This document shows, one piece after another, positions 631 through 24,000 of a DNA stretch of 24,000 nucleotides. This DNA is from an archaeon (GTDB lineage: Archaea; Asgardarchaeota; Heimdallarchaeia; Heimdallarchaeales; Kariarchaeaceae). How positions within the stretch are numbered: position 1 is the first letter of the stretch; every line of letters starts with the position of its first letter. The notes beneath the pieces are model-generated. The model had not been told where the DNA came from, ran no database searches, and saw only the letters and a program-made list of their open reading frames with translations. A program made the translations under genes and the position numbers. The stretch covers positions 3,868 to 27,867 of the forward strand of contig JAJRQD010000018.1 of the NCBI GenBank assembly GCA_024280435.1, in the 5' to 3' direction.

Positions 631-1191
631 TTGGGTGAGATTTTGAATATATTTGAATTAATTTATGTAGCTTGGAAAAGAGAGAGGCAGAGTCATAAAT
701 TAGAATCATTAGAAATTGATTTTTTTAGTAAAATTAGACCATATGTTACACATTTAGAATCACAATATAAAAATGAGAAAGATAATTTGGTTGCTAAATT
801 ATTCAAAAGAAGATGGGAAAGAGTTAATTATTTATTAAATGATCTGATAACAATTAGAATGAATAAGCATTTTAAAGAAAGTATCAATGATTTTGATATA
901 CCTGAGGAATTACCTGAGGAAGAGATTGCATTTAGAAAAAAACTAGATAGTATACAAAGATCATTCAGAGATGAGGTGTTGAATATCAATGATGTGAGCA
1001 TAGAATTAGTGGATGATGATGGAAATGATTATGAATTTATCATCTTCAATACTAATGAGGATACAATTGCAATTGGAACTGATTTTTGTGAGTATGGGCC
1101 TTTTAGAAAGAATGATATTGTATTGATGCCAAGAGATAATTTAAGAAATTACGTGATTAAATCAAAAGGAAATGAAATTTCAATTAATTAA
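631..1191 (+). CDS. gins51: GINS complex subunit Gins51 (Sld5/Psf1-type replication factor)
   Basis: TTG start 8 nt after the PCNA stop. The helical A-domain ('LESLEIDFFSKIRPYV', 'LLNDLITIRMNKH', 'LPEEEIAFRKKL') and the small B-domain ('IGTDFCEYGPFRKNDIVLMPRDNLRNYVIKSKGNEI') fit the archaeal Gins51 pattern as I know it. Confidence 0.65.
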   Translation: MGEILNIFELIYVAWKRERQSHKLESLEIDFFSKIRPYVTHLESQYKNEKDNLVAKLFKRRWERVNYLLNDLITIRMNKHFKESINDFDIPEELPEEEIAFRKKLDSIQRSFRDEVLNINDVSIELVDDDGNDYEFIIFNTNEDTIAIGTDFCEYGPFRKNDIVLMPRDNLRNYVIKSKGNEISIN

Positions 1192-1385
1192 AAATTATCT
1201 ACTTTTTCAATAAACTCAGCATGTAAAATACCTTTTCCACCCTGGGGTTCAATGATCAGTGCATCACATGATTCATTTTTACAATTGACTTTGATTTTAG
1301 CATGATCGAAGATAATCATTTCATGTTCACATTCGTTACATTTAACTTTGATAAAACTTGATTTTGGTTTTTGTAAATAACTCAT
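1188..1385 (-). CDS. rps27e: 30S ribosomal protein S27e (eS27)
   Basis: 65 aa with a C4 zinc ribbon, 'VKCNECEHEMIIFDHAKIKVNCKNESCDALIIEPQGGKG', typical of eS27. Its stop overlaps the GINS stop on the opposite strand (TTAA at 1188-1191). Confidence 0.85.
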   Translation of the reverse strand: MSYLQKPKSSFIKVKCNECEHEMIIFDHAKIKVNCKNESCDALIIEPQGGKGILHAEFIEKVDNF

Positions 1386-1577: not shown

Positions 1578-3062
1578 ATGTCAACACCTGAAACATCACC
1601 GATCAGATTAATTATGTTCACATCAAAAGATTGCGTGTATTGTCCACCAGTTGAATCTATTGTACGAGAGGTAATTGGCAGTGGAATGCAGGAAATTGTT
1701 CATGTATCCACTATTGATATCGATGTTGATAAAGAGTCTGCATCTCAATATCATATCAATGCATTGCCAACACTTGTGATCAATGATGAAATAGTACTAG
1801 AAGGTGGTATGGAGGATGAAGCTGTTAGAGACCTCCTATGGTCAACATTGCTCAATTATGCATTCACATCAGGTGAAACAGAGGAATTAATGAAATCGGC
1901 ACTTTTAACTATTACTATGAATTCTATTGATTCTTTGAATAATACATCGATATTACGTCCATCAGTTGGGGATTATGCACATATTAGCACATATCAGTTG
2001 AATTTACTAAGTCTATACAGTCTTGATCCATTGATACCTCATTTTCTTTATCGTGCAGGTTACAAATTAGGAATGTATGGTATAATGCACCACATCTTAT
2101 TAACATTGAATCCAAGCCTTGGTAGAACACCTAAAAGAAAGATGAGATTTTCCAAACTTGGTAAAGCACTTGAATTATACTTCTCTAATAGAGAGATTTA
2201 TTCCACCAAGATTGCACATGGGGCACATGTGGTAGAGCAAACTGAGAATACAATTCATCTGAAAGTATCTGAACTGGCTTCATCATCAATTGGGATAGAT
2301 GTTGGTGAACCAATGTGTGGATTCACAGCAGGACAGTTAGCAGGTGTGACAGTAGCAGTTATGGGTACTGACGCTAGTTGTGAGGAACAGATTTGTCTGG
2401 CCAATGGAGGCGATTTTTGTTTATTCAAAATATCAATTGATCAAGCTTTTAAGAAACCAACATTACCACCCCTTGAAGACAAAGATGAGAGAACTATAAG
2501 AAAGCAAAATTTCTATGAAGTAATTCATGAAACTACTAAAATTATTGAAGATAGTTTGTTGATGCGTAAAGCTCAAAGACATAATGCAGGTGATTTTATT
2601 CATATATCTGTAATACAGCCGATAATTATTACACTCAAACTATTAGATAGATTATCAGGAGTTTTATTGTATTCCGGCGGTAGAGAATTAGGTATTTTTG
2701 GTTCAGGTAAGAATTTACTTTACAGATTAGTTGAAGAAAAAGGAAGTAATGGTATTGTATCACTTGAAGAAGGGATTAGTCTGTTATATGATTATCTAAC
2801 TCATCCTACCAGTCATTTAAGTCGAGATTATGGTAGAGTAAGATCAATAAAAATCGATGAGAAAACATATCATATTGAAATTGAGGAGAACCTCTATGTA
2901 TCGGGTATGAATGTAACAAATTTAGATAAAACATTCTGTGATTTTCAAGCTGGATTTTTTGCAGGTAGATTACAAATTTTGATAGGAACTGAGCCACAGG
3001 TAAAAGAGATCAAATGTCAGGGAAATGGAAACGATATCTGTATATTTGAAGTAAAAATCTGA
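1578..3062 (+). CDS. Thioredoxin/glutaredoxin-fold domain fused to two V4R (4-vinyl reductase-like) domains
   Basis: The N-terminus has CxxC ('DCVYCPP') plus 'ALPTLVINDE', a Trx-fold signature. Each of two halves ends in a V4R Cys pattern: 'CGFTAGQLAGV...EEQICLANGGDFCLFKI' and 'CDFQAGFFAGR...EIKCQGNGNDICIFEV'. Confidence 0.7.
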   Translation: MSTPETSPIRLIMFTSKDCVYCPPVESIVREVIGSGMQEIVHVSTIDIDVDKESASQYHINALPTLVINDEIVLEGGMEDEAVRDLLWSTLLNYAFTSGETEELMKSALLTITMNSIDSLNNTSILRPSVGDYAHISTYQLNLLSLYSLDPLIPHFLYRAGYKLGMYGIMHHILLTLNPSLGRTPKRKMRFSKLGKALELYFSNREIYSTKIAHGAHVVEQTENTIHLKVSELASSSIGIDVGEPMCGFTAGQLAGVTVAVMGTDASCEEQICLANGGDFCLFKISIDQAFKKPTLPPLEDKDERTIRKQNFYEVIHETTKIIEDSLLMRKAQRHNAGDFIHISVIQPIIITLKLLDRLSGVLLYSGGRELGIFGSGKNLLYRLVEEKGSNGIVSLEEGISLLYDYLTHPTSHLSRDYGRVRSIKIDEKTYHIEIEENLYVSGMNVTNLDKTFCDFQAGFFAGRLQILIGTEPQVKEIKCQGNGNDICIFEVKI

Positions 3063-3639
3063 ATAAATAATCATTGCCAAGCTAAAATTTTACATTCAAA
3101 TTGATTTTAGATACCGATAAGTTACTTACTAATATATATAAGTATTTAGCGCCAAATAATCAAGGCCACCATAATTTATGTTTACAGACAGATATGCAAC
3201 TATATAGAGATTAAACTGGTTTAAACTATAAAAAAATATTTTAAATAAATTTTTTAATTCTATATTTTATATAATACAAAAAAATACAATGATAATTGCT
3301 AACTAACGAAAATAGTATCTGAACCAATAATTCATCAAATTACACAAATAATACTATTCTAAGCCAATAAACAACTAATCTGGTACATAATAATACACAA
3401 ATTTATGATTTGATAACTTGTATTACAATATAATAACATTAAATTATTTGAGTACCTATCAAATTCAAGAGGAAAATGTAAATTATGGATATAAGTGGTA
3501 TCAAATCAAATATCACAATTTTTCAATATAGTATACAATTTCGTTTCTATTTCAATAAACTATTCTCGCGATTAAACCTTAATACGACATATTCTTTTTA
3601 ATACTTAGTGAGAATAAGTACAATATAGTCGAAATTTTC

Positions 3640-4215
3640 TTGGAGGAAAAATGTATTACAAGCGAAAGACGTAAAATATTCAAAATTGTGCTCTTAGGCG
3701 ATGGTGCCGTTGGAAAGACTGCACTGCGACACAGATATCTGGGGGACGGCTTCCAGCAATCATATTCAATGACCATAGGGGCTGATTTCGCTGTGAAGAG
3801 GGTCAATCTTGATGGTGAAGAGGTAGTTGCTCAGATCTGGGATCTTGCGGGTCAGATTAGATTTCAATCTGTGCGTGAGGTATATTATCAGGGGGCCACA
3901 GGAGCGTTACTAGTATTTGATATAACAAGATCACCAACTTTTGAAAATATACCCAATTGGATAACAGAGCTTTTAGATAATAATAAAAATAAGATTGTGC
4001 CAATGGTGCTTATAGGAAATAAAAGTGACCTAAGAAATACAGCAGATGGTGCGATTACATATGATGCAGGATTAGAGTATGCACAGAATTTATCTGCATG
4101 GAGCCACTTTGAGATACCTTATATTGAGACTTCAGCACTATCTGGAGATAATGTGGAATCTGGATTTGCGGTTTTACTTAGAAATATAGAAAATTTTCTA
4201 GATTCTTCAGGATAA
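3640..4215 (+). CDS. Rab-like small GTPase (Ras superfamily)
   Basis: G1 'GDGAVGKT', switch I 'TIGADF' (RabF1-like), G3 'WDLAGQ', 'YYQGATGALLVFDIT' (RabF4/5-like), G4 'GNKSDL', G5 'ETSAL'. TTG start; there is no in-frame ATG before G1. No C-terminal Cys. Confidence 0.85.
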   Translation: MEEKCITSERRKIFKIVLLGDGAVGKTALRHRYLGDGFQQSYSMTIGADFAVKRVNLDGEEVVAQIWDLAGQIRFQSVREVYYQGATGALLVFDITRSPTFENIPNWITELLDNNKNKIVPMVLIGNKSDLRNTADGAITYDAGLEYAQNLSAWSHFEIPYIETSALSGDNVESGFAVLLRNIENFLDSSG

Positions 4216-4295: not shown

Positions 4296-4661
4296 ATGTC
4301 TAGAAGACGCCATAGATCAGTAAATGATATGGATGCATTACTACCAGATGAATTGATTGAAACATCAAGCGGATCTACTGTGAATGAATTGAAAGTAATT
4401 GTGGATCAATTAGAAGAAGAACTCAAAGATGTTATTGGGAAATATGAAGAAAAAATTGCAGATCTAACAGAAAGATTAGAATCTATTGAATCAGATTTCA
4501 AGCAAGTGATTGAAGGTTTAAAAAATGCGCAAGGCGGTGTTGCATCTACACCATCACCCGCTAGCCCAGCAACAGCAGGACCACCATCAACAGGGCCTGT
4601 AAGCCCAGCAGGACCTTCAGGACCCGTAACAGGTGGTCCAAAACCACCAAAACTAGGCTAA
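4296..4661 (+). CDS. Hypothetical coiled-coil protein with a proline-rich C-terminal tail
   Basis: 121 aa with an ATG start. Heptad-like acidic/Leu-Ile segment 'VNELKVIVDQLEEELKDVIGKYEEKIADLTERLESIESDFKQVIEGL', followed by 'STPSPASPATAGPPSTGPVSPAGPSGPVTGGPKPPKLG'. The local GC spike (about 4530-4660) is explained by Pro/Ala/Gly codons. Confidence 0.6.
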   Translation: MSRRRHRSVNDMDALLPDELIETSSGSTVNELKVIVDQLEEELKDVIGKYEEKIADLTERLESIESDFKQVIEGLKNAQGGVASTPSPASPATAGPPSTGPVSPAGPSGPVTGGPKPPKLG

Positions 4662-5324: not shown

Positions 5325-5404
5325 TATAGATAAAAAAGAACGGGTGATTTGATTAGGTTTATTATATCAATTGTCTATAAATAGATCAAGGATAGGTAAA
5401 TTGC

Positions 5405-6127
5405 ATGATCGATAGTGATATAATAATTGCCGAGGAATACAGGTGGGTTTTTGATAATGAGCCTACTTTTCATTTGAATGGTAATGTTTTGAAGGGTAAG
5501 GTTGGAAGAACACCGGATGGAGATAGTATTGTGATCTCAATTACGGTACCTGAATTTTACCCGATTATTAAACCAGAAATAAAAGTAGTAACAAAGATTT
5601 CACATCCAGATATTGATGAGAATATGAATTTATCATTGCAGATGATGGATGAATGGGAACCTAGTTACAGATTGAGAGATATAATTGCGAATGCACGACG
5701 TCTTTTTATTAAATCAAAAAGATCAATTAGGTCAATTAAACCATCATTACCAAAGAGATCAATACAGGTTGAAGCATCATCTAGACTTGAAGATGAGATA
5801 TTAAGATTACAAAAACAGATTACTGAGTTGAATAAACAGATCACAGATGTGAAAACAGATAAACTTAAACAGGCTGGGATACAGCAATCTGCTGCATTTA
5901 AAGTTTCTGCATTTTCGGATTTAACTGCTCAGTTAAATGCTTTAGAAGATTTAATTGAGTTATTGGAAATTAAATTTGAAGATGCAGATATAGATCAAAC
6001 TGACTTTTTCAGATTATACAGGAAGTATATTAAGGAAAAATATGTTTGCACACAAAAATTATCAAAAATTGAGGTAGATAAAAATGACGTATCAAAGAAG
6101 AACGCAAAAAGACCAATTAGACATTGA
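5405..6127 (+). CDS. vps23: ESCRT-I Vps23/Tsg101-like protein: UBC-fold UEV domain (no catalytic Cys), coiled-coil stalk and steadiness-box-like C-terminus
   Basis: UBC-fold pattern 'PEFYPIIKPEIKVVTKISHPDIDENMNLSLQMMDEWEP' with Ser where E2 enzymes carry the active Cys. Coiled coil 'LEDEILRLQKQITELNKQITDVK'. The C-terminal 'DADIDQTDFFRLYRKYIKEKYVCTQKLSKI' resembles the Tsg101/Vps23 steadiness box. Confidence 0.75.
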   Translation: MIDSDIIIAEEYRWVFDNEPTFHLNGNVLKGKVGRTPDGDSIVISITVPEFYPIIKPEIKVVTKISHPDIDENMNLSLQMMDEWEPSYRLRDIIANARRLFIKSKRSIRSIKPSLPKRSIQVEASSRLEDEILRLQKQITELNKQITDVKTDKLKQAGIQQSAAFKVSAFSDLTAQLNALEDLIELLEIKFEDADIDQTDFFRLYRKYIKEKYVCTQKLSKIEVDKNDVSKKNAKRPIRH

Positions 6128-6698
6128 AGCAGACCTTTTTTCTGCTATTGCTACAATGGACCAGTTATCGAGATATTTCGATAAGGGACTAGTAGAAGGG
6201 ACTTTATACAAGAGACAACTAAAATCATGCATATCAGATGTATTTAAATCTAGAATTCAGCTTGAGAAACTTGGATTCAATATTGGAGAATTTATCAGTA
6301 GAGAAGATCTAGAGACAAAGTATCCTGAAGGATTGAGAAGACTAAATCTTGTAGAGGGAAGTGATGGTGAATCACTTGATTTTGAGCAAATTAAAGATTT
6401 ACCAAGAAAAACAGCTGATTATGTGGCAAATGCAATTGAGTTGATAGATCTATTAAAGTTAAAAACAGTAGCCAGAGTAGAGTATATTGTGCCATTGCTT
6501 GATGAGTTAATTAGTATTACTGGAAACTTCCCTAAACTTGGAAAAGAGCATTGGATCGGTACTGAGATAGAAGGTTGGCGAGATGAGTTGAAAGATGAAA
6601 AACCAAGTATGACACTTGGAGAGGAACGATGTGAAAAACTTGAATTCGATGCAGTCAGATGGCTGAATGAGTTTAGAAGAAATTTAAAGGAGATCTAG
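6084..6698 (+). CDS. vps28: ESCRT-I subunit Vps28
   Basis: The N-terminal helix 'EADLFSAIATMDQLSRYFDKGLVEGTLYKRQLKSCISDVFKS' and the C-terminal domain 'ANAIELIDLLKLKTVARVEYIVPLLDELI...GWRDELKD...LEFDAVRWLNEFRRNL' track eukaryotic Vps28 end to end. ATG 6084 overlaps the upstream gene by 44 nt. An alternative ATG at 6156 would remove conserved residues. Confidence 0.85.
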   Translation: MTYQRRTQKDQLDIEADLFSAIATMDQLSRYFDKGLVEGTLYKRQLKSCISDVFKSRIQLEKLGFNIGEFISREDLETKYPEGLRRLNLVEGSDGESLDFEQIKDLPRKTADYVANAIELIDLLKLKTVARVEYIVPLLDELISITGNFPKLGKEHWIGTEIEGWRDELKDEKPSMTLGEERCEKLEFDAVRWLNEFRRNLKEI

Positions 6699-6702
6699 AA
6701 AA

Positions 6703-7425
6703 ATGGGTCTAAGAGACATCGAAAGAAAAATACGTGCAAATAGTGCATATCAGAGAAAAGAAGCAGAACTGCTTTTAGATGAATTAGATCAGATGATTGA
6801 GAATGTCCAGACCTTAAAAAAACAACTCAAGAAATTTGAGAAGAAACATGGTAAAGAAATTACAGATAACAAGGATTACTACATGAAAATATCTGAATTA
6901 CGGGATAATTTGGGATTACCTGAAGAATTAGGAGTTTATGATTGGAAAGATAGCCCATCTTTCAGTGATAAATTTGGTAAAAGTGATTACTATGATCAAC
7001 TTGCACATGAAATACTTGAACTTGGTAAATTCGTCATTGCAGAGACAGGTGGATTGATATCAGTTGCAGAGATAGTTTTGAAAATAAATAAAAAACGACC
7101 TGGAAAATTAGTACCACCAAGAGATATAATTAAATCGTTAGAAAAATTAATCAAAGATAAATTGATCTCACCTCTACGTAAGCTCAAATCAGGAGTGCTT
7201 ATCGCAGAATTTGTCAATATTGAGATGTCTAAAGATCAAGAGGCGGTATTTAATCTGGCATCAAGACATGGTTTCTTAACCAAAGAATCTTTGATTATTC
7301 AACTCGGTTGGAATTCAGAAAGGGCCTCTAATATACTTGAAGAGTTAGTTACCAATGGCCTTGCATTGAAAGATGAATCATATCATGAGGGTACTAAGTA
7401 TTGGTTCCCAGGTCTTGGACAGTAA
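6703..7425 (+). CDS. vps22: ESCRT-II subunit Vps22/SNF8 (EAP30 domain)
   Basis: N-terminal helix 'LKKQLKKFEKKHGKEI', then 'DYYDQLAHEILELG...ETGGLISVAEI', then a second winged helix 'LGWNSERASNILEELVTNGLALKDES...KYWFPGL'. This is the EAP30/Vps22 pattern. The start is 4 nt after the Vps28 stop. Confidence 0.85.
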   Translation: MGLRDIERKIRANSAYQRKEAELLLDELDQMIENVQTLKKQLKKFEKKHGKEITDNKDYYMKISELRDNLGLPEELGVYDWKDSPSFSDKFGKSDYYDQLAHEILELGKFVIAETGGLISVAEIVLKINKKRPGKLVPPRDIIKSLEKLIKDKLISPLRKLKSGVLIAEFVNIEMSKDQEAVFNLASRHGFLTKESLIIQLGWNSERASNILEELVTNGLALKDESYHEGTKYWFPGLGQ

Positions 7426-7428
7426 AAT

Positions 7429-8097
7429 CTAAATTATTAATTTGAATGAATCTTTGGTGGAACCTACCCATTTTGCCCTACCCTCTTCCACTAATGTATC
7501 AAAAATCTCTACAAATTCAGAAATTGGTAATGTACTCCAATCCTCACCCATATTTTGTAGTTCATAAAAGGTCAACACCTCTGCCGCATATCCTGTATCA
7601 AATAAATATGCAACAATAATTTCTTTCCATTGTTCATTAGTTTTATAATATACCCTTACTATGATATGATGGTCATCAATCCATTTTGCCAATCCATTCT
7701 CAACCATATCATTAACAATAATATCGAGTTGAGGTTTTGTCAGTTGTTTTCTAATTTTATTATTATTAAATGGGAATTGATCTTGTAGTTCAATAATACT
7801 GATAATATGTAATTTGAAATGTGATGAATAATCAATAATTAATGTTTTCCAAGATTCTTTCCATGATTGAAGATGACCTGCATGAGTTGGTTGTATGAAC
7901 ATCCACGGTTTATTAACCCAACCAGGCAAGTTATTTATGAATTCTTCCAATTTATTGACAACTTTTTGTTCTGATACAACCTCTATCTTCTGTTTATTTA
8001 CTTGAATTGGTTCTGAAGGCTTTGTTATTGTATCTTTTTTATCAACAACTTTTGATATATCTTTTTTTTCTTTTCTAGGACGCTCCTTGACAGACAT
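7429..8097 (-). CDS. vps25: ESCRT-II subunit Vps25, with a Lys-rich N-terminal extension
   Basis: 'WMFIQPTHAGHLQSWKESWKTLII', 'FPFNNNKIRKQL', 'AKWIDDHH..VRVYYKTNEQWKEII', 'VLTFYEL' and 'EEGRAKWVG' follow the tandem winged-helix motif order of Vps25. The first ~50 aa are Lys/Glu-rich and look disordered. Confidence 0.85.
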   Translation of the reverse strand: MSVKERPRKEKKDISKVVDKKDTITKPSEPIQVNKQKIEVVSEQKVVNKLEEFINNLPGWVNKPWMFIQPTHAGHLQSWKESWKTLIIDYSSHFKLHIISIIELQDQFPFNNNKIRKQLTKPQLDIIVNDMVENGLAKWIDDHHIIVRVYYKTNEQWKEIIVAYLFDTGYAAEVLTFYELQNMGEDWSTLPISEFVEIFDTLVEEGRAKWVGSTKDSFKLII

Positions 8098-8228
8098 GTA
8101 TAGTTAAATTGTAATTTCCTTGTTTTTATACCATTGTAAAGTATAATGAACAATTTATAAATCTATTAGTAAAAGATTTTGTTGAATTAAAATAAAACAT
8201 AAAGATACTTTCATCCTAAGCAATATAG

Positions 8229-12253: not shown

Positions 12254-13318
12254 TTATCCAAAACAATTCATAAATGGACTTTCTGTCATAAGAAAATATG
12301 AAAAGATTAGAACTTCTCTTTCTGATATATTATCTGGTGTCTCATATGGTGACCTTACTTTTTCAGCTTCATTGAGCCATAAATGAGCCATTATATAAAG
12401 GTCCAATGTAATTCCTTTTGGGTACATATCTTTTATTTCCATACTTTGATATTGATTATATGCATTCATATATCCCTGTATAAAATCATTCAATTCTACT
12501 TTTGTATTGATAACATTATTTGTTGATTTGTATTCTTCAAATGCCATATGAGCAAATATACTCGCAATATCAAACATCCTATCTTTCATCAAATTATCAG
12601 AAATTCTTGGTCCAAGATTGACTATAAAGGCAATCCCATTTTTTATATTTAATGTTGTTGTGGCCTCACCTGTCGGTTGGAATGTTATATTTTGTATTGA
12701 TGGATCTACAATAAGATCATATGCACCAAAGCTATCGGATATTTTGTTGAATTGATCTTCGAGTAAATATGAAAAAGCTTCTCTTTCTTCATCTGTAAGA
12801 GGCATATGTACAAGTAAAAATAAAATATATTCTCTGACAACACTCTCATCTGTGGGTATAGTTTTAGCACCATGTACGGCTGAAATTATCCTTCCAAGTA
12901 AATAATTTTTGGCCTCTCCAGATATTGATAGTTGATCAAGAGTGTATCCAGAATGAATTTGGAATACAATATATTTTTTATCATAAGAGCTTTGTATAAT
13001 TGGGTAAGTTCGTATATCATGGTATGATAGGAGGCTCTGTTCTAGATCAGAATATCTCCTCATATCTCTATCATAATTATCTTGAAAGAAATACTGCTTA
13101 ATTATTACATTCTGAACAAATTTTCCCTGATCAGTACCAAAATTGATTGTTACTGAAAATACATTGACATCCCCAACTTTCTCCACGTCATAATTGAAAT
13201 TATCTACATTTATAAATCTTGAGGGTATACCATCTGGACTCAATAATTGTTCTTTATACATAGGAGAGATTAACTCTAATATCTCAGTTATATCTGGCCG
13301 GGAAAATATAGAACTCAT
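12254..13318 (-). CDS. Hypothetical protein, possibly protein-kinase-like (APH/choline-kinase type) fold with a degenerate active site
   Basis: The motif order is suggestive: 'NVIIKQYF' (beta3 Lys), 'LGRIISAVHG', 'LIVDPSIQNITF' (D-x4-N catalytic loop, lacking the usual HG), 'AFIVNLGP' (Asn where the metal-binding Asp of DFG/IDF sits), 'DRMFDIASIF'. This is a by-eye call only. Confidence 0.3.
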   Translation of the reverse strand: MSSIFSRPDITEILELISPMYKEQLLSPDGIPSRFINVDNFNYDVEKVGDVNVFSVTINFGTDQGKFVQNVIIKQYFFQDNYDRDMRRYSDLEQSLLSYHDIRTYPIIQSSYDKKYIVFQIHSGYTLDQLSISGEAKNYLLGRIISAVHGAKTIPTDESVVREYILFLLVHMPLTDEEREAFSYLLEDQFNKISDSFGAYDLIVDPSIQNITFQPTGEATTTLNIKNGIAFIVNLGPRISDNLMKDRMFDIASIFAHMAFEEYKSTNNVINTKVELNDFIQGYMNAYNQYQSMEIKDMYPKGITLDLYIMAHLWLNEAEKVRSPYETPDNISEREVLIFSYFLMTESPFMNCFG

Positions 13319-13532: not shown

Positions 13533-13925
13533 TTGAACAGCTTATTTAATACTCGATACAATAATTTTTTAGTGAATACATTCAATAATTATAATTACTA
13601 TAAATTATTACTGATAATTAGTAGTTTAACACCCTTGAAGACTAAAATACTGCTTATACTGTCACATATATCACCTAAACAATTAACTGCAACTGAATTA
13701 ACTGCCCTGCTTGGTTATTCAAAAAGCTCAAGGATAATCTACAGAGGAGTTCTAGATGAATTGGAGAAAGATCAATTAATAAAATTAGTAAAAATATCAA
13801 AGAAAAAGTATTCAATTCAAATAAACATTAATCATCCAATGATGAATATATTAAATGAGTTAAGCTATGAATTTGGTGAGGACTATTCTCAAAGACTACT
13901 AGATATTTTGGAGGATAGAGAATGA
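13533..13925 (+). CDS. Winged helix-turn-helix transcriptional regulator (ArsR/MarR-like)
   Basis: 'LKTKILLILSHISPKQLTATELTALLGYSKSSRIIYRGVLDELEKDQLIKLVK' has the HTH-plus-wing layout. There is no in-frame ATG before the HTH, so the start is non-ATG and uncertain (TTG 13533 or GTG 13569). Confidence 0.5.
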   Translation: MNSLFNTRYNNFLVNTFNNYNYYKLLLIISSLTPLKTKILLILSHISPKQLTATELTALLGYSKSSRIIYRGVLDELEKDQLIKLVKISKKKYSIQININHPMMNILNELSYEFGEDYSQRLLDILEDRE

Positions 13926-14470
13926 ACAGAATTAATATTAAATTATTAACCATATTTTTTATTATTATAACTATAATCAGCTATAATTTATTGTCATCAT
14001 TGCCAAATAAGGAAATTAATACTGAAGATCAATCTATTAATGAAGTAAGTGAATTGGAAGGTATTGATATTTCACCCACACCAAAGAGATCAATGCATAA
14101 TTTTGTGAGTTCAGTTATAATATCATCAGTTATCATTACATTATTAGCAATCTACTACCAATTTTTTACATTGAACTCTGAGATTAGGAATTACATATTA
14201 TCAGCATTAACACTTGCAGGCTTTAAAAAAACAATGATGAAATTTCCCTCATTGATTGTTAGTGATGAGATACAATTGAAAATAACTGGAATGAAAAAAA
14301 TAAAAATTATTATTACAGGTCCTTTTTATGATAATTATCAAGAATTTGGATTACAAAAAAATATTAACAAAAAACTATCTATTTTATCAAGTAGAATAAT
14401 ATCAGATATAGAATTGTTACCATTAAAATTATTGCTATTCAAAGAGTATATACTTGAAAATAACAAATAA
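13922..14470 (+). CDS. Hypothetical membrane protein (2 predicted TM helices)
   Basis: ATGA start/stop overlap with the wHTH gene. Hydrophobic spans are 'LLTIFFIIITIISYNLL' and 'FVSSVIISSVIITLLAIYY'. I recognise no family motif. Confidence 0.5.
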   Translation: MNRINIKLLTIFFIIITIISYNLLSSLPNKEINTEDQSINEVSELEGIDISPTPKRSMHNFVSSVIISSVIITLLAIYYQFFTLNSEIRNYILSALTLAGFKKTMMKFPSLIVSDEIQLKITGMKKIKIIITGPFYDNYQEFGLQKNINKKLSILSSRIISDIELLPLKLLLFKEYILENNK

Positions 14471-14566: not shown

Positions 14567-15100
14567 GTGAGTTACAAAGCGACATTCAAAATCTTACTTT
14601 TGGGTAACGGGGGCGTAGGTAAGACAGCAGTGGTACAGAGATTTGTTCATGGCAAATTTAAAGAGTCATATCAAATGACAATTGGCATGGAGCCCTATAG
14701 TCGCTATGAAACGATAAATGGAGTGAAAGTTGTATATTCCCTTTGGGATATTGCAGGACAAGAAAAATTCCGTGCAATGCGTCAGATATTTTTCCAGGGT
14801 GCTCGTGGTACGATAATTGTATTTGATCTAACACGAAGAGAATCTTTTGAAAAAATTGAAGAATGGATGGAGGAAAGTAAAGCAGAGGCCAATGATCAAT
14901 TATTTTTATTAATAGGAAATAAGAATGATTTGGAAGATGAAAGAGAGATTTCACTTGCGGAAGCTAATAATTTAGCAAATGAATTAGGTTTTATTGATTA
15001 TATAGAAAGTTCTGCAAAAACAGGAATGAATGTTGAAGCAGCTTTTACATTGCTTGGATCCAAATTACTAGAAAAGTATGCGCCTAAGAACAGAAAATAA
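14567..15100 (+). CDS. Rab-like small GTPase (Ras superfamily), second copy
   Basis: G1 'GNGGVGKT', switch I 'TIGMEP', G3 'WDIAGQEKF', 'FFQGARGTIIVFDLT', G4 'GNKNDL', G5 'SSAKTG'. GTG start. The C-terminus 'EKYAPKNRK' has no Cys. Confidence 0.85.
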   Translation: MSYKATFKILLLGNGGVGKTAVVQRFVHGKFKESYQMTIGMEPYSRYETINGVKVVYSLWDIAGQEKFRAMRQIFFQGARGTIIVFDLTRRESFEKIEEWMEESKAEANDQLFLLIGNKNDLEDEREISLAEANNLANELGFIDYIESSAKTGMNVEAAFTLLGSKLLEKYAPKNRK

Positions 15101-15110
15101 TAACTAGTCT

Positions 15111-15995
15111 TTATTTACTATCATTCTTGATTGATAATACAATTATCATAGAAAGCAACAAAAATAATATCCCAACCCATACTTTAAAATTATATCTTGT
15201 ACCAAGAATAAATTCAATTGTGAAAGGAATTGTCATCTGGAACAAAAGCAGTATAGAAGCAGAATTTGCACTGATTTCTTTTAATGCTTCAAAATACGCA
15301 ATAAATGCAATAATAGTGGAGAAAATAATTAACAATATCAACCACATAAATAATTCATTGTTCATAGGTACAAATAAATGTTCAAAAAATAAACCAAAAC
15401 TAAAGCTGACTATTGAGATAATTAATAGAACAATATAGAACAATGCAAATATATCCAGTTCTTTATTCTCAACAGTACTATATCTTGAAGTTGTAACAAT
15501 ATAGACTGCATAGCTAAAAGCAGATAATAATAGGAAAATAACACCAATAGTTGAAAGATTTTTACCAGAAAAGTTTTGATCAGATGTAATGGCAATTACA
15601 CCAATTATACCAATAATAATGGCGATAAAATGTTTAAGGTGAATAGTTTCTTTGAGAACAATAAATGATAGAAATGGTACAATAATTAGGAAAATTAATG
15701 ATAACAATGATGACAAACCAGGTGGAACTAACTTTTCTTGCCCCATATATTGTAAAGTTAATCCAATTGCTTCTGATACACCAATCATCCATACCCATTT
15801 ATTATTAATCATCTTTATGATTATATCTTTTTTATTTTTCATAAATGGGGTGACTACAATGAATGAAATGAAAAATCTGAGAAATAAGAATGTATATGGT
15901 CCAATAATTCGAAGACCTTGTTCTATAAAAATAGTTGAGAGACCCCATCCAAATATTGCAATTGCAATTGCACCATAACTTCTAACACTTGCCAT
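15111..15995 (-). CDS. EamA/DMT-superfamily transporter (10 TM)
   Basis: Starting from ATG 15995 the product begins 'MASVRSYGAIAIAIFGWGLSTIFIEQGL' and contains two EamA-like halves. The 108-codon upstream extension in the ORF track overlaps the divergent DUF371 gene and looks non-coding. Confidence 0.75.
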   Translation of the reverse strand: MASVRSYGAIAIAIFGWGLSTIFIEQGLRIIGPYTFLFLRFFISFIVVTPFMKNKKDIIIKMINNKWVWMIGVSEAIGLTLQYMGQEKLVPPGLSSLLSLIFLIIVPFLSFIVLKETIHLKHFIAIIIGIIGVIAITSDQNFSGKNLSTIGVIFLLLSAFSYAVYIVTTSRYSTVENKELDIFALFYIVLLIISIVSFSFGLFFEHLFVPMNNELFMWLILLIIFSTIIAFIAYFEALKEISANSASILLLFQMTIPFTIEFILGTRYNFKVWVGILFLLLSMIIVLSIKNDSK

Positions 15996-16083
15996 AGATT
16001 TACTTTTTTTTTGTGGTATTGAAGTTTTTAGTTCTGTCAGATAATTTAATATTATTATAAGTAAAAAATGTAAAAAAATATTG

Positions 16084-16500
16084 ATGAAATTTATTATAGA
16101 AGTAAAAGGACATCCAAATATAATTGGAAGGCATAAAAGTACGTGGCAGATAACAAAGGACCCCCATTTAACGATCAAAGGGGACTGTATAATTGGAGTT
16201 TCAGCATCCAAAGGAGCAATAGATCTACCTTTTGAATTCAAGCAGCATCTAAAAGAGGAGAAATGGTATTTGGTATCAATCGAAATTGATGACAACAGCA
16301 TTATATCTGGAAGATTCAAAGGAAATAATCAAATGAAGTTGTCTAGCATAGATGATATGGTATTTAGAAAAAGTGAATTTGTATGTGATAGAACAATAGG
16401 TATCTCAGGAGAATTTGTAGCGAAAGATATCCCAAGAGATTTTATAAGAAGAATTAAAAATATGGATGTAAATTTCAAAATTTGTATTAGCTTTGATTAA
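16084..16500 (+). CDS. DUF371-family protein
   Basis: 'KGHPNIIGRHKSTWQITKDPHLTIKGDCIIGVSA' and 'MVFRKSEFVCDRTIGI' match the DUF371 pattern as I recall it (GH.NI..H.tT.EiT....Lt..GDCIiGv.A; iRKS.f.cdRT). Confidence 0.6.
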   Translation: MKFIIEVKGHPNIIGRHKSTWQITKDPHLTIKGDCIIGVSASKGAIDLPFEFKQHLKEEKWYLVSIEIDDNSIISGRFKGNNQMKLSSIDDMVFRKSEFVCDRTIGISGEFVAKDIPRDFIRRIKNMDVNFKICISFD

Positions 16501-20213: not shown

Positions 20214-20600
20214 TTACATTTTTTTTGTAATAGAAACAATCAAAACCCGATTTTTAACTGTTAAATCATATTCTTTTTCTATTTCATGGTTAAAACTGAT
20301 AGTTTCTACATATTTGGGATCACCTTCAACAATAATTTGCATGCTTTTATCCAGTATTGTGATATTTACTTGATCTTTATATTTAATTCCAGGTATTTCA
20401 AAAATTAATTCATAATGATCTCTATATTCGATTGAATCAAAATATGGTTTCACTATTTTTGGATTCATGGTGTTAAAGCTGAAAGAAAAGCTAAAATTAT
20501 TTAATTTATCACTATTATTTAGGAAAGTTTTTGAGAACATATCAGTAATTTGATTGATTATATCTTTGAATTCATTTGGTAATATTTCATCATCTTCCAT
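20214..20600 (-). CDS. hsp20: Small heat-shock protein (Hsp20/alpha-crystallin domain)
   Basis: 'FDSIEYRDHYELIFEIPGIKYKDQVNITILDKSMQIIVEG' and 'VKNRVLIVSITKK' fit the alpha-crystallin pattern (D..E.dd.y.l..dlPG..k.di.i.v.....l.I.g / nGvL.i.l.K). I prefer ATG 20600 to the AT-rich 20651 extension. Confidence 0.65.
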   Translation of the reverse strand: MEDDEILPNEFKDIINQITDMFSKTFLNNSDKLNNFSFSFSFNTMNPKIVKPYFDSIEYRDHYELIFEIPGIKYKDQVNITILDKSMQIIVEGDPKYVETISFNHEIEKEYDLTVKNRVLIVSITKKM

Positions 20601-20835
20601 TGAATCACTTCCTAAAAATAGGATGTATTTTTTAATATTTAAATATACCATTCAGGTACTGTACTCATAGTATAATTCTAAAATGATTATTTTGCTGAAA
20701 AACCACTTAAAAAAAATAAAAAATTTAATAATTAATTATAGAGATAACAACGTAAATATAAATGGAAATTTATGTATTATTATAGTGCTCATTTCAGTAA
20801 GGAACTTTAATATTTTAATATTTAAATTGAAAAAA

Positions 20836-21181: not shown

Positions 21182-24000
21182 ATGTATTCAAAATCAATTA
21201 TTACTGAAAATTATGATCCAAACATAAACTATCAATTTAGCTTTATATGGGAAAATTATCATCCAGGTGAAACATTAATCAGCTTCATCTCTGAATATTT
21301 AATGCCAAAGGTGGAAAAAAAAGTATTGGAAATTTTAACCTATGAAAAATATTTGATTCTTTTACATTGGGATAATAAAATACAATTAGGATATATCGTG
21401 ATAATTTCTTTTGAAGTTGAAAAGTATCTTGATGATTGTATTAATTTTGCAAAATCCTTGTGGGATTTAATTTTAACCCCAATAGAATCATATAAAAAAA
21501 ATGAAAATAAAGAATATGATTATTCTAATTCCAGTATGAACTATATTTTTGAAATAGATTGGATAAAAAGATCTTTAATGGGAGGTAAAATAGAATTTAC
21601 CATCGAGAAAAATCGTGAAAAATTTGTATCTCAATTTTCTAATTTCTTATATGTATTTAGATGGTCAGTGTATTCATTAGACTATGCTAATTTTGAACAA
21701 AACAGAGTAATTTTCCATTTTCATAATCAATTGATTGATCAAAAATATTTCACATTTGAAGAATATTTTTTGAAGATAACTGATTTTTCTGATAAACAAT
21801 TTCAATCTTTGATTGATAAAATAATTATATTATCATTTCAATTCGAAACAAAGAAAAGAATGGAAACATTTCTAAATAATTTCCATGTCATAAACAAATT
21901 AGTAGATACAGAAATCACAAAGATTGATAGAATTAGAATAATTAAAAGTAATATAGAAATGATGATAGCTATTGATAAAAAATATATAGTTAATAATCTA
22001 ACCAATATAGTTTTAAGTTTGCCAGATCAGCAAAATAATGAGATATTTATTGATGAATTGTTAGCTATTTCAGATATTTTAGAAAAAATTGGAATTCAAG
22101 AAAATGAAGACATAATAAAATTAATTGATGGTACAATTCTTGACATAGTTATTAATAGCAATAACATTGATAAAAATGAATATATAATGAAATTGACACA
22201 CAAGTCTTTAAACTGGGGTTTAGATCATTTTATAGGTTATTTAAATTTAATAATTAATATTTTCAGCAAAGATAATATAAAGCTATTATTACAAATAGCA
22301 GGTGAATTTGAGAAAGAGCTTATAATTACAAATAAAGGTATTTCATGCCTAGTTCATATAAATGAAAATTGTGGTGAATTTTCAAAAGCAATTGAATTAA
22401 GATTATTAGCCATTAACCTCAATAAAGATGAAACATCAAAATTTTATGATACAATTAATAGTTTAATTGAAATAGCAAGCTACAAAGAAATTAGTTTGCA
22501 AATTTTTGAAAGTGAAATAATCAAATATTTTGGATATATTTTAACAAATTTTCCAGATAAAGAGATATTAGAAATATATTTTAATGAGTTGATCACTAAA
22601 TTTTTAGATAATAATCATACTGAAATTGTAATATCATTTATAAGATGGATACAAAATAATATTGAGAATATTGAAAATAACGAAAGGTTAAATTTATTTA
22701 AAATACTCAATTCAACAATACTAAAATATCCTGAACTCAATAAAATTCAATTAAAATTTCAATTATTATACTTCAATCAATATTTAGATCAGTATTCAAA
22801 AAGTGATGATCAGAATTTATTAGAAAGTGCAGATAGATTATTAAAAAATATATTTAACCAAGCCGATCCTTTAGACAGTAAATACAAAGAAACCCTAACT
22901 ATAATAACACAATCACTTGTGCTATCTGCTTCTAAATATCAAGAATGGGAATTAATTCAAGAAGCCATTCATCGTTTTAGTTTATTAATGAATGATAAAA
23001 AATACTTTCAAAAAGCAATTACTAAAATTTATATCAATGCTGGGAAGTCTAGAAATCAAATCAAAATAATAGACAAAGATAAAAAAGATATTGGATTAAA
23101 AATATTTGATGAAACTATCAGATTGATTTCTAACAATCCAAATCAAATTAATTTAGCATTTTCTTTTCTTCCTGTTGCAAAAGAATTAGCGTTAAAATCA
23201 AATGATTTCAATAGATTCATGATTTATTCAACATTAGAAATGAATTTAAATAAAATTAATGGAAAACAATGGATAGACAGTTTAATTGAAGCCATATTAA
23301 ACCTGATAAATAAAAATTCAATAGATTATGCTCGACAACTATTTGAAGCAGGATTAAAAATTGATATGAATGAAAAGGAAGAATATGAATTACTGAGTAG
23401 ACAACTAGAATTAGCTGAATTAGAATTAGATATCGTTAATGTAGAAGAGATATCAATAAAAAGAAAAAGATTAATTGAATTAGCCGTAAACAATGAAGGA
23501 ATTGCAACTGAAGATGAAATAATAAACTCATTCCGAAATGGAATATCTGAGATAATGTCAAAGGGTAATACTCATTACTTACACTCCTTTTTACTAAAAG
23601 CAATCAAATTTGGAGTTGATAATAAAATAAATGATCTTACAGATTTTTATAATGCCCTTAAAGATAGTTTTAATGCAGTAATGAGTGATTATAAGGACAA
23701 TCATGATGAAAGTTCCTATTCAGAAATAATATTTATTTTGAGGGAATTATATAATATTTATCAACATAATGATAAAAATATTATATTCGAATATGCAACT
23801 ATTGTACTCAAAACAAATAATTTATTGTATAATAAAGATATGAATTTATCTAATTTAATAAAAAATTTATTTATTATAAAAGAGTTTACCAATTATTTTA
23901 GCACTCCAGACAGTATAGTTGAAGATGTTAAATTGGAAGAGTACATAAATACTGTCAAAGATATGTTTAATTTAGTTTCCAAAGAAAAAAATGTCTCAAC
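21182..24000 (+). CDS. Large (more than 939 aa) alpha-helical repeat protein with an N-terminal alpha/beta domain; 3' end beyond the window; absent from the supplied ORF track
   Basis: I read the frame codon by codon from ATG 21182 to base 24000 and found no stop in 939 codons, in DNA where stops should occur every 10-20 codons by chance. The protein begins MYSKSIITENYDPNINYQFSFIWENYHPGETLISFISEYL... and is Asn/Lys/Ile/Leu/Glu-rich. After about residue 110 it is a long run of amphipathic helices. I recognise no P-loop, metal or catalytic motif. Confidence 0.8.
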   Translation, partial: MYSKSIITENYDPNINYQFSFIWENYHPGETLISFISEYLMPKVEKKVLEILTYEKYLILLHWDNKIQLGYIVIISFEVEKYLDDCINFAKSLWDLILTPIESYKKNENKEYDYSNSSMNYIFEIDWIKRSLMGGKIEFTIEKNREKFVSQFSNFLYVFRWSVYSLDYANFEQNRVIFHFHNQLIDQKYFTFEEYFLKITDFSDKQFQSLIDKIIILSFQFETKKRMETFLNNFHVINKLVDTEITKIDRIRIIKSNIEMMIAIDKKYIVNNLTNIVLSLPDQQNNEIFIDELLAISDILEKIGIQENEDIIKLIDGTILDIVINSNNIDKNEYIMKLTHKSLNWGLDHFIGYLNLIINIFSKDNIKLLLQIAGEFEKELIITNKGISCLVHINENCGEFSKAIELRLLAINLNKDETSKFYDTINSLIEIASYKEISLQIFESEIIKYFGYILTNFPDKEILEIYFNELITKFLDNNHTEIVISFIRWIQNNIENIENNERLNLFKILNSTILKYPELNKIQLKFQLLYFNQYLDQYSKSDDQNLLESADRLLKNIFNQADPLDSKYKETLTIITQSLVLSASKYQEWELIQEAIHRFSLLMNDKKYFQKAITKIYINAGKSRNQIKIIDKDKKDIGLKIFDETIRLISNNPNQINLAFSFLPVAKELALKSNDFNRFMIYSTLEMNLNKINGKQWIDSLIEAILNLINKNSIDYARQLFEAGLKIDMNEKEEYELLSRQLELAELELDIVNVEEISIKRKRLIELAVNNEGIATEDEIINSFRNGISEIMSKGNTHYLHSFLLKAIKFGVDNKINDLTDFYNALKDSFNAVMSDYKDNHDESSYSEIIFILRELYNIYQHNDKNIIFEYATIVLKTNNLLYNKDMNLSNLIKNLFIIKEFTNYFSTPDSIVEDVKLEEYINTVKDMFNLVSKEKNVS

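Follow-up and report, generated by a model that had tools for sequence, protein, structure and literature searches.

Four genes for subunits of ESCRT-I and ESCRT-II lie side by side in the 24-kb window (the whole stretch of DNA that was analysed), encoding a Vps23-like protein, Vps28, Vps22 and Vps25 (Table 1). A preliminary description of this DNA had given the same coordinates and identities to these ORFs, and both Pfam and structure profiles support them, mostly over the whole length of the proteins. It was also right about the Asgard archaeal setting of a system known in outline, and about the flanking genes, which include TFE, a PCNA fragment, GINS51, eS27 and tRNA-Ile, the last being the sole Rfam match in the window (Rfam scan). 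A Rab-like GTPase and a conserved coiled-coil protein are further neighbours, and past vps25 the window continues with rsmB(+), PUA(+) and truA(+).

Table 1. Features of the ESCRT-I/II locus and its surroundings, with positions in the window.
Feature	Position (nt)	Strand	Evidence or remark
UEV-Vps23-like ESCRT-I subunit, 240 aa	5405..6127	+	UQ_con, Vps23_core, AF2 model
Stalk helix (predicted), aa 121-156	5765-5872	+	AF2
Helical hairpin, steadiness-box/Vps23-core candidate, aa 169-231	5909-6097	+	AF2
Vps28 (ESCRT-I), 204 aa	6084..6698	+	VPS28 Pfam, 2j9w, Foldseek
Vps22/SNF8-like EAP30 protein (ESCRT-II), 240 aa	6703..7425	+	EAP30 Pfam, human SNF8
Vps25 (ESCRT-II), 222 aa	7429..8097	-	PF05871, 9uyv, 7pb9, 3cuq_C; convergent with vps22
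vps23-like/vps28 overlap, 44 nt	6084..6127	+	two reading frames
GAGGT, Shine-Dalgarno-like	6071-6075	+	8 nt ahead of vps28 ATG
GGAG	6689-6692	+	10 nt ahead of vps22 ATG
TFE/vps23-like intergenic region	5325..5404	+	holds TATAAATA
vps25/rsmB divergent intergenic region	8098..8228	.	holds TATAAAAA on minus strand
eS27	1188-1385	-	flanking gene
Rab-like GTPase	3640-4215		neighbour
Coiled-coil/Pro-rich 121-aa protein	4296-4661		neighbour, conserved

The vps23-like, vps28 and vps22 genes are one tightly coupled co-directional unit, while vps25 is a separate convergent unit. The vps23-like and vps28 genes overlap by 44 nt and a 4-nt gap lies between vps28 and vps22; between vps22 and vps25, 3 nt separate convergent stop codons. 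The four genes are not the single prokaryotic operon that had been proposed without mention of strand, since vps25 lies on the opposite strand and converges on the other three. A candidate promoter for the three-gene unit may be found around TATAAATA (5376-5383), 21 nt before the vps23-like ATG, in DNA that is AT-rich, and TATAAAAA (8130-8123, minus strand), 25 nt before the vps25 ATG, is a candidate promoter for vps25.

The Vps23-like protein

The E2/UEV fold occupies aa 1-103 (nt 5405-5713) of this protein, with a Pfam UQ_con match at aa 39-103 (3.4e-10), and the E2 fold was also seen by a Foldseek search of the AF2 model. In the alignment, Ser77 (nt 5633-5635) occupies the position of the catalytic Cys, opposite Cys87 of Ubc13; none of 16 family members has Cys there, and in the window protein the HPN motif reads HPD. 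Profile scores place the N-terminal domain nearer to generic E2s. The Pfam UEV family (PF05743) gave no match to the window protein and matched only 4 of 16 relatives, below threshold. Alignment and model together describe a predicted UEV, that is, an E2-like (UBC) fold without the catalytic cysteine.

Beyond the UEV fold, the AF2 model (pLDDT 78) has three long helices at aa 121-156, 169-192 and 198-231. The Vps23_core match in this region is sub-threshold (E 0.0036, aa 172-215, 17.7 bits against a cut-off of 26.8), and matches of the same kind occur in 10 of the 16 family members. A profile of the stalk and steadiness box (A6) retrieved 38 proteins among 1.84 billion, three of which (P0235, P0221 and P0208) have Vps23_core matches above the cut-off in the matching region (31.8, 28.6 and 29.1 bits). 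Against PDB sequences, the profile picked up coiled-coil noise alone, without any Vps23/Tsg101 chain. The tail is probably a steadiness-box homologue, supported transitively through the retrieved proteins. The overlap with vps28 is found as well in L003, L005, L007, L008 and L011, and in other lineages vps23 and vps28 are fused, as in P0208 (473 aa), which combines UQ_con, a Vps23-like region and a full VPS28. Both the overlap and the fusions suggest that the Vps23-like protein would assemble with Vps28, and by analogy it would bind ubiquitin.

Vps28, Vps22 and Vps25

Vps28 matches PF03997 over nearly the whole model (1.2e-10, 41.9 bits, cut-off 24.5, model 2-187/188). It has an N-terminal helical hairpin, as in the ESCRT-I headpiece, and a C-terminal four-helix bundle (aa 105-203, nt 6396-6692), both in one protein. 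As for Vps22 and Vps25, a profile built from orthologues was compared with solved structures, and the C-terminal domain aligned with 2j9w (6.5e-4, aa 105-202). In a low-confidence single-sequence model (pLDDT 65), the best four PDB matches by Foldseek are all Vps28 C-terminal domains (TM 0.77-0.83), and the N-terminal part matches ESCRT-I headpiece chains with non-significant E values.

The third protein matches EAP30 (PF04157) along the entire model (3e-28, 99.5 bits, model 2-219/219) and has an N-terminal helix followed by tandem winged helices. It is closer to Vps22 than to Vps36, with alignments to human SNF8 over aa 6-238 (3.7e-24) and to yeast Vps22 (8.6e-12), the Vps36 alignment being partial (1.4e-10, aa 92-211 only). 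Vps25 matches the ESCRT-II family (PF05871; 2.6e-24, 86.4 bits, model 12-127/138), and both winged-helix domains are covered by each of its structural matches, 9uyv (2.7e-25), Odin 7pb9 (3e-25) and human 3cuq_C (1.7e-18). The tandem winged helices follow a Lys/Glu-rich extension (aa 1 to ~57) that is poorly conserved in alignment A5. The motifs FPFNNNKIRKQL and LTFYEL, quoted earlier for Vps25, are both in its ORF. Profile searches had been proposed as the check on these assignments; the Vps23-like protein matched the UBC family (UQ_con) and the other three matched their own families, and the tandem winged helices of Vps22 and Vps25 and the four-helix domain of Vps28 were supported.

Components absent from the window

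No ESCRT-III, Vps4, ubiquitin or E1/E2/E3 gene was found in the 24 kb among ORFs of at least 80 aa by Pfam, or by NCBIfam for ORFs that had no Pfam match. A tblastn search of the window with ubiquitin, Vps4, Snf7a, Snf7b and an EF-G-like neighbour returned nothing at E < 0.02, and no Vps4 or Snf7 remnants were found by tblastn in the vps25/rsmB interval. Vps37, Mvb12 and Vps36 had no Pfam match in any ORF of the window, which contains only one EAP30 gene. The idea that the coiled-coil protein of 121 aa might resemble Vps37/Mvb12 or be a relative of the Vps23 stalk was rejected: the hhalign probability was 2.8%, and four orthologues do not share its P[ST]xP-like motifs.

These absences had been noted before and were described as unusual, a reading that does not hold. 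All Asgard archaea are without Vps36, Vps37 and Mvb12, for which Vps22 homodimers and Vps23 dimers substitute (Hatano 2022, PMC9192718), so the window encodes an Asgard-type ESCRT-I/II and not the eukaryotic composition. Likewise, in Kariarchaeia ubiquitin has already been described as lying apart from UEV-Vps23 (Lu 2023 preprint, 10.1101/2023.07.25.550441). As for ESCRT-III and Vps4, a Vps4 (P0082) and a Snf7 (P0054), respectively 79% and 84% identical to their L011 orthologues, are recorded on one NCBI contig of 65,344 bp; the parent contig of the window has the same size, and both genes are thus apparently on the window's own contig. The absences are largely explained by published Asgard traits and by genes located elsewhere, and absence from a 24-kb window should not be taken as absence from the genome.

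Conservation and rearrangement of the cluster

Homologues of the four proteins carry the labels Heimdallarchaeota or Kariarchaeaceae. Eight independent contigs, taken from Asgard MAGs or public runs (L003-L009 and L011), carry the block, and the proteins are 50-77% identical across relatives, with no decay. GCA_024278115.1 also contributes short near-identical fragments. The order of the four genes is kept in L003, L004, L005, L009 and L011; L007 has all four, with vps4 inserted ahead of a co-directed vps25. In the canonical Asgard cluster, vps22 is co-directed with vps23 and vps28, and vps25 with vps4 and ESCRT-III (Hatano 2022, PMC9192718; Makarova 2024). The window has the first half of this layout. 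The second half is found neither in the window nor in L003, but it is found in L004, L005, L007, L009 and L011, where vps4 is immediately upstream of vps25 and co-directed. In L004, L009 and L011 two snf7 genes accompany the vps25-vps4 pair as well.

Relatives have vps25 as the distal member of a vps4-vps25 unit, and in L004, L005, L009 and L011 vps4 overlaps the vps25 start, where the window has the vps25/rsmB interval. Next after vps25 comes rsmB in both the window and L003. The vps25/rsmB junction is probably derived. GCA_026702845.1 has the window's junctions, with the ESCRT-I/II block at 91.7-94.4 kb of a contig and vps4-snf7-snf7 about 77 kb away on that contig, at 171.0-173.6 kb; in L011 the upstream synteny is as in the window and vps25-vps4-snf7-snf7 are contiguous. 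From the split layout of the window compared with the contiguous L011 and with GCA_026702845.1, we conclude that a local rearrangement split the typical Asgard ESCRT cluster. ESCRT-III and Vps4 would be elsewhere on the same contig as a result of at least two rearrangement events that broke a vps23-vps28-vps22 / vps25-vps4 / snf7-snf7 ancestor. In the phylogenies of the window, L003 and L011, the four ESCRT proteins group the window with L011 (189/200), and the flanking genes favour no grouping (139 vs 159 of 300). Judged from these trees, the branching order of the three appears to conflict with the simplest rearrangement history.

Alternative explanations

A first doubt concerns the Vps23-like protein, which could instead belong to the ubiquitin system, as an E2 of the usual kind or a generic Mms2-like UEV, leaving only three ESCRT genes at the locus. 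Its top Pfam and PDB matches are indeed catalytic E2s such as Ubc13 and its direct Vps23_core match is sub-threshold; however, the loss of the catalytic Cys, the change from HPN to HPD and a 135-aa helical stalk plus hairpin, absent from E2s and Mms2, make this hardly credible. The tail is, moreover, homologous to tails with significant Vps23_core, the gene shares an overlap with vps28 here and forms a fusion with it in other lineages, and for Kariarchaeia the family has been reported under the name UEV-Vps23 (Lu 2023, 10.1101/2023.07.25.550441). Nor do the four genes seem to stem from contaminating eukaryotic DNA, from a chimeric assembly or from a eukaryote by recent transfer. These families are otherwise typical of eukaryotes, but the genes have no introns, overlap or are spaced by 3-4 nt, are preceded by SD-like motifs and sit among archaeal TFE, PCNA, GINS51, eS27 and RsmB genes; the recurrence in eight contigs and the low identity to eukaryotic proteins render such an origin practically negligible.

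It could also be that ESCRT-I/II became uncoupled from ESCRT-III/Vps4 in this sublineage and serves another process, e.g. ubiquitin-dependent scaffolding or a link to TFE, the coiled-coil protein and the Rab-like GTPase. The loss of vps25-vps4 co-transcription would fit this, as would the GTPase/coiled-coil/TFE block adjoining the vps23-like gene in the window, L003, L005 and L011. Yet TFE, PCNA and GINS are housekeeping genes, the upstream neighbour in L007 and L008 is a NOG1-type GTPase or other genes, and in L004 TFE is on the ESCRT-III side. We consider the uncoupling very unlikely, given that intact Vps4 and two Snf7 genes are kept in a relative with the same split, apparently on the window contig too, and that all four proteins are conserved.

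Proposed function

The region very probably encodes the ubiquitin-facing, upstream half of an Asgard ESCRT pathway in a member of the Kariarchaeaceae (Heimdall group), in a split-cluster organisation. In the mechanism that we propose, the Cys-less UEV would bind ubiquitin on cargo, while the stalk and hairpin of the Vps23-like protein would self-associate and pack on the hairpin at the Vps28 N terminus to give a 2:1 headpiece that replaces Vps37. The C-terminal four-helix domain of Vps28 would then contact Vps22, whose homodimer, in place of Vps22/Vps36, would carry Vps25. Finally, Vps25 would nucleate Snf7-type ESCRT-III, to be remodelled afterwards by Vps4. The folds and families come from the present analysis, and the interactions are inferred from the literature on orthologues, where UEV-ubiquitin binding, a Vps23 dimer with Vps28, a Vps22 homodimer and Vps25-ESCRT-IIIB interaction are described (PMC9192718; Lu 2023, 10.1101/2023.07.25.550441).

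We regard it as improbable that in this Kariarchaeaceae sublineage ESCRT-I/II became an independent genomic and transcriptional unit functionally tied to its persistent neighbours, the Rab-like GTPase, the 121-aa protein and TFE. Such a tie could mean GTPase-controlled recruitment, for instance, or a role for the 121-aa protein as an ESCRT-I partner or adaptor that has escaped recognition, and it would amount to an archaeal forerunner of Rab/ESCRT coupling. The locus illustrates well a system that has been described before. The genes for ESCRT-I/II in Asgard archaea are central to the evidence for ubiquitin-directed membrane sorting before eukaryotes; the locus leaves the current picture unchanged and is useful for comparative work.

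Comparison with known systems

Vps23, Vps28, Vps22 and Vps25 correspond domain for domain to subunits of eukaryotic ESCRT-I (Vps23/Tsg101-Vps28-Vps37-Mvb12) and ESCRT-II (Vps22-Vps36-2xVps25), and human SNF8 and Vps25 align full-length with the profiles. Unlike the eukaryotic complexes, the window has no Vps37, Mvb12, Vps36 or GLUE/PH domain. The UEV of its Vps23-like protein is nearer to E2s than to the Tsg101-type UEV, no proline-rich linker is present, and Vps25 has its N-terminal tail in addition to the eukaryotic form.

Among archaea, Odinarchaeum yellowstonii LCB_4 also has Vps23 and Vps28 as separate proteins, and its tandem winged-helix Vps25 is the 7PB9 match given above; in contrast to the window, one cluster holds all its Ub and ESCRT genes, and Odin Vps22 is monomeric in vitro. 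The Asgard UEV-Vps23 family asCOG005829/asCOG007313 has UEV, stalk and steadiness box as in the window and is known from Kariarchaeia, with ubiquitin not adjacent (Lu 2023, 10.1101/2023.07.25.550441); the window protein seems to be one more member, with HPD for HPN. In the complete ESCRT cluster of the related population L011 (Logan ERR10503100, a 21,328-bp contig), the synteny from Roadblock/TFIIS/PCNA through TFE is identical to the window, and the four ESCRT-I/II genes show 67-77% identity, Vps25 55%. Past vps25, however, L011 has the overlapping vps4, two snf7, PUA(-), rsmB(-) and EF-G-like(+), where the window has rsmB, PUA and truA.

Heimdallarchaeota AB_125 (HeimAB125_14070 UEV-Vps23-Vps28, HeimAB125_14050 Vps22; PMC9192718), of the same Heimdall supergroup, shares with the window the Cys-less UEV, the stalk, the steadiness box, the Vps28 domains, a single Vps22-type EAP30 protein and Vps25, and is likewise without Vps36 and Vps37. 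Heimdall genomes are described as having the whole Ub-ESCRT set clustered (PMC9192718), unlike the window, with no ubiquitin, ESCRT-III or Vps4 gene within its 24 kb. Here the larger cluster is broken and the ESCRT-I/II block is intact, with vps25 staying with ESCRT-I and Vps22 and not with vps4. In AB_125 UEV-Vps23 and Vps28 are one fused protein, and beside this form the locus adds, in Kariarchaeaceae, clean separate genes for the Vps23-like protein and Vps28.

ESCRT-I and ESCRT-II proteins of the window

The window is densely coding, with a GC content of 22-36%, and Pfam assigns family domains to each of its four ESCRT proteins (see the table). For sequence searches against the PDB, profiles were made from orthologues of related loci. 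The Vps25 profile retrieved 9uyv (2.7e-25), the Odinarchaeal tandem winged-helix Vps25 structure 7pb9 (3e-25) and human Vps25 (1.7e-18), and the Vps22 profile human SNF8 (3.7e-24, spanning aa 6-238), yeast Vps22 (8.6e-12) and, only partially, Vps36 (1.4e-10). The Vps28 profile matched 2j9w, the C-terminal four-helix domain of Vps28, at aa 105-202. In a single-sequence, low-confidence AF2 model of Vps28 (pLDDT 65), the best four Foldseek matches in the PDB were Vps28 C-terminal domains (TM 0.77-0.83), and the N-terminal hairpin resembles ESCRT-I headpiece chains with non-significant E-values. By these Pfam and PDB profile matches, the four proteins named in the preliminary description are real and rightly named; neither a lack of profile matches nor wrong folds for Vps22, Vps25 or Vps28 was found.

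Features of the window, with Pfam matches
Feature	Positions	Strand	Length	Pfam match
Thioredoxin-V4R protein	1578-3062	+	494 aa	
AT-rich gap	3063-3639		578 nt	
Ras/Rab-like GTPase	3640-4215	+		Ras, 2e-48
Coiled-coil protein	4296-4661	+	121 aa	
Vps23-like	5405-6127	+	240 aa	UQ_con, 3.4e-10, aa 39-103; Vps23_core, 0.0036 (below cut-off), aa 172-215
Vps28	6084-6698	+	204 aa	VPS28, 1.2e-10, model 2-187/188
Vps22	6703-7425	+	240 aa	EAP30, 3e-28, model 2-219/219
Vps25	7429-8097	-	222 aa	ESCRT-II/Vps25, 2.6e-24, model 12-127/138
Rearrangement junction	8098-8228			
Rearrangement junction	9585/9564			
ORF	12254-13318	-		
ORF	13533-14470	+		
Ras/Rab-like GTPase	14567-15100	+		Ras, 5e-50
EamA transporter, from first TTG	15111-16319	-		
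DUF371 gene	16081-16500	+		
ORF	20217-20651	-		
ORF, continuing past the window end	21182-24000	+	at least 939 aa	

The N-terminal domain of the Vps23-like protein has an E2 fold. It scores better with profiles of generic E2s than with the UEV model of Pfam, which is of the Tsg101 type, and HPN is changed to HPD. Since Ser77 occupies the position of the Ubc13 catalytic Cys, and none of 16 family members has a Cys there, this domain is by definition a UEV. The AF2 model (pLDDT 78) continues with a 36-residue helix and a helical hairpin (aa 169-231). Sub-threshold Vps23_core matches occur in 10 of the 16 members, and the stalk-plus-hairpin profile retrieved no Vps23/Tsg101 chain in the PDB sequence search. 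From 1.84 billion representative proteins the same profile found only 38, nearly all with the same architecture; among 10 of these that were scanned, P0235, P0221 and P0208 exceed the Pfam cut-off for Vps23_core in the aligned region. The hairpin is a putative steadiness box, a reading that the direct matches support weakly and the indirect link through the profile search supports more strongly.

Gene layout

The vps23-like gene and vps28 share 44 nt, each read in its own frame, and 4 nt separate vps28 from vps22. Shine-Dalgarno-like motifs precede the ATG of vps28 (GAGGT, 8 nt) and of vps22 (GGAG, 10 nt). The preliminary description of a single four-gene operon is wrong, since vps25 lies on the minus strand and converges on vps22, the two stop codons being 3 nt apart. 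TATA-like octamers 21 nt upstream of the vps23-like ATG and 25 nt upstream of the vps25 ATG may be promoters of these genes, a reading limited by the AT-richness of the DNA. In Heimdall AB_125, UEV-Vps23 and Vps28 are fused, whereas the window has two overlapping genes. P0208, of 473 aa, belongs to this described kind of UEV-Vps23-Vps28 fusion, which makes the overlapping pair the unfused form of a known fusion. P0204 (388 aa) is a similar fusion from another lineage.

Location of vps4 and snf7

In five related loci (L004, L005, L007, L009 and L011), a MIT-AAA-Vps4_C ATPase gene lies directly upstream of vps25 in the same direction, with two snf7 genes alongside in L004, L009 and L011. Upstream, L011 (a contig from ERR10503100) has exactly the genes of the window: Roadblock, TFIIS, PCNA, GINS51, eS27, Trx-V4R, GTPase, coiled-coil protein, TFE and the four ESCRT genes. 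Beyond this block, however, L011 continues with vps4(-), snf7(+), snf7(+), PUA(-), rsmB(-) and an EF-G-like gene(+), while the window, like L003 (GCA_026702845.1), continues with rsmB(+), PUA(+) and truA(+). In L003, the EF-G-like gene(-), vps4(-), snf7(+) and snf7(+) are found about 76.6 kb further on the same contig. Protein searches with L003 proteins retrieved the Snf7 protein P0054 and the Vps4 protein P0082 (84% and 79% identical to their L011 orthologues), each recorded on one NCBI contig of 65,344 bp; the NCBI contig on record for the window proteins has the same length. We infer that vps4 and snf7 are on the window's own contig, beyond the window. Named homologues carry the labels Candidatus Heimdallarchaeota or Kariarchaeaceae, and GCA_024278115.1 holds fragments near-identical to the window.

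In our model, the L011 order could become the L003 order by two inversions, of [vps4..rsmB] and then of [snf7b..vps4, EF-G-like ... truA]. Both derived junctions are common to the window and L003, and we treated them as a better marker of kinship than protein trees. Against them, neighbour-joining of the four ESCRT proteins (865 gap-free columns) groups the window with L011 (189/200), and the shared junctions may instead be convergent or the product of a reversal, or the ESCRT block may have a history of its own. Six flanking proteins divide over the branching (139 vs 159 of 300), the window, L003 and L011 being roughly equidistant. The comparison of the junctions drew on L003, L010 and L011. 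Because the blocks [PUA-rsmB-EF-G-like], [ESCRT-I/II], [vps4-snf7-snf7] and [PCNA...TFE] differ in order and orientation among L004, L011 and window/L003, a local rearrangement hot spot is suggested.

Other genes in the window

The 121-aa protein, whose gene adjoins TFE in the window, L003, L004, L005 and L011, is conserved. It starts with a basic RRRxRS, carries the motifs LLPxELIE and GSTVxELK and a coiled coil of ~45 aa, and has a Pro/Ser/Gly-rich tail ending in a conserved PP[KS]LG. It has no family in Pfam or NCBIfam, and kinship with the Vps23 stalk was ruled out (hhalign probability 2.8%). The two GTPases share about 40% identity. The first, encoded two genes ahead of the ESCRT block, is 91-95% identical to its L003 and L011 counterparts, lacks a C-terminal Cys for prenylation and has TTG as sole in-frame start candidate. 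The 494-aa protein joins an N-terminal thioredoxin-like domain to two V4R domains; its gene keeps this place in L011 and L004, and is not there in L003. The gap that follows contains no ORF or Rfam match, and its L011 counterpart has only about 130 nt.

The EamA ORF overlaps the DUF371 gene on the opposite strand by about 240 nt, its true start being probably further downstream. Three ORFs without family have stated lengths of 354, 130 and 182 aa; the 130-aa one looks, by eye, like a winged-helix DNA-binding protein, and that at 20217-20651 has a sub-threshold Hsp20 match. The last ORF lies in the most AT-rich part (GC 22-24%), with no match in Pfam or NCBIfam.

Comparison with known ESCRT systems

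Family scans of ORFs and tblastn found no ESCRT-III/Vps4, ubiquitin system, Vps36 or Vps37/Mvb12 within the 24 kb, as the preliminary description had it; their being unusual did not hold, since most of these absences are expected (Hatano 2022; Lu 2023), the setting of vps25 excepted. Asgard genomes have one Vps22-type gene, without Vps36 or Vps37, and use Vps22 homodimers and a Vps23 dimer with Vps28 as substitutes (Hatano 2022, PMC9192718). In Kari-, Gerd-, Jord- and Heimdallarchaeia, UEV-Vps23 does not form a cluster with ubiquitin (Lu 2023 preprint, 10.1101/2023.07.25.550441), and ubiquitin-system genes were found near the ESCRT cluster in none of six related loci. Normally vps25 is co-directed with vps4 and ESCRT-III (Makarova 2024; Hatano 2022, PMC9192718); the sole departure is that rsmB, not vps4/ESCRT-III, follows vps25 in the window. 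Known Asgard biology together with a local rearrangement accounts for the "missing" parts.

To the folds and families, gene coupling, block conservation and displaced vps4 and snf7 found here, published orthologues would add a mechanism: the UEV of the Vps23-like protein would bind ubiquitin, Vps23 and Vps28 would form a 2:1 headpiece, the Vps28 C-terminal domain would contact Vps22, and a Vps22 homodimer would join Vps25, which may nucleate ESCRT-IIIB for remodelling by Vps4. The subunit composition of eukaryotic ESCRT-I/II is not that of the window locus, which is of the Asgard type and adds one more member to a known system.
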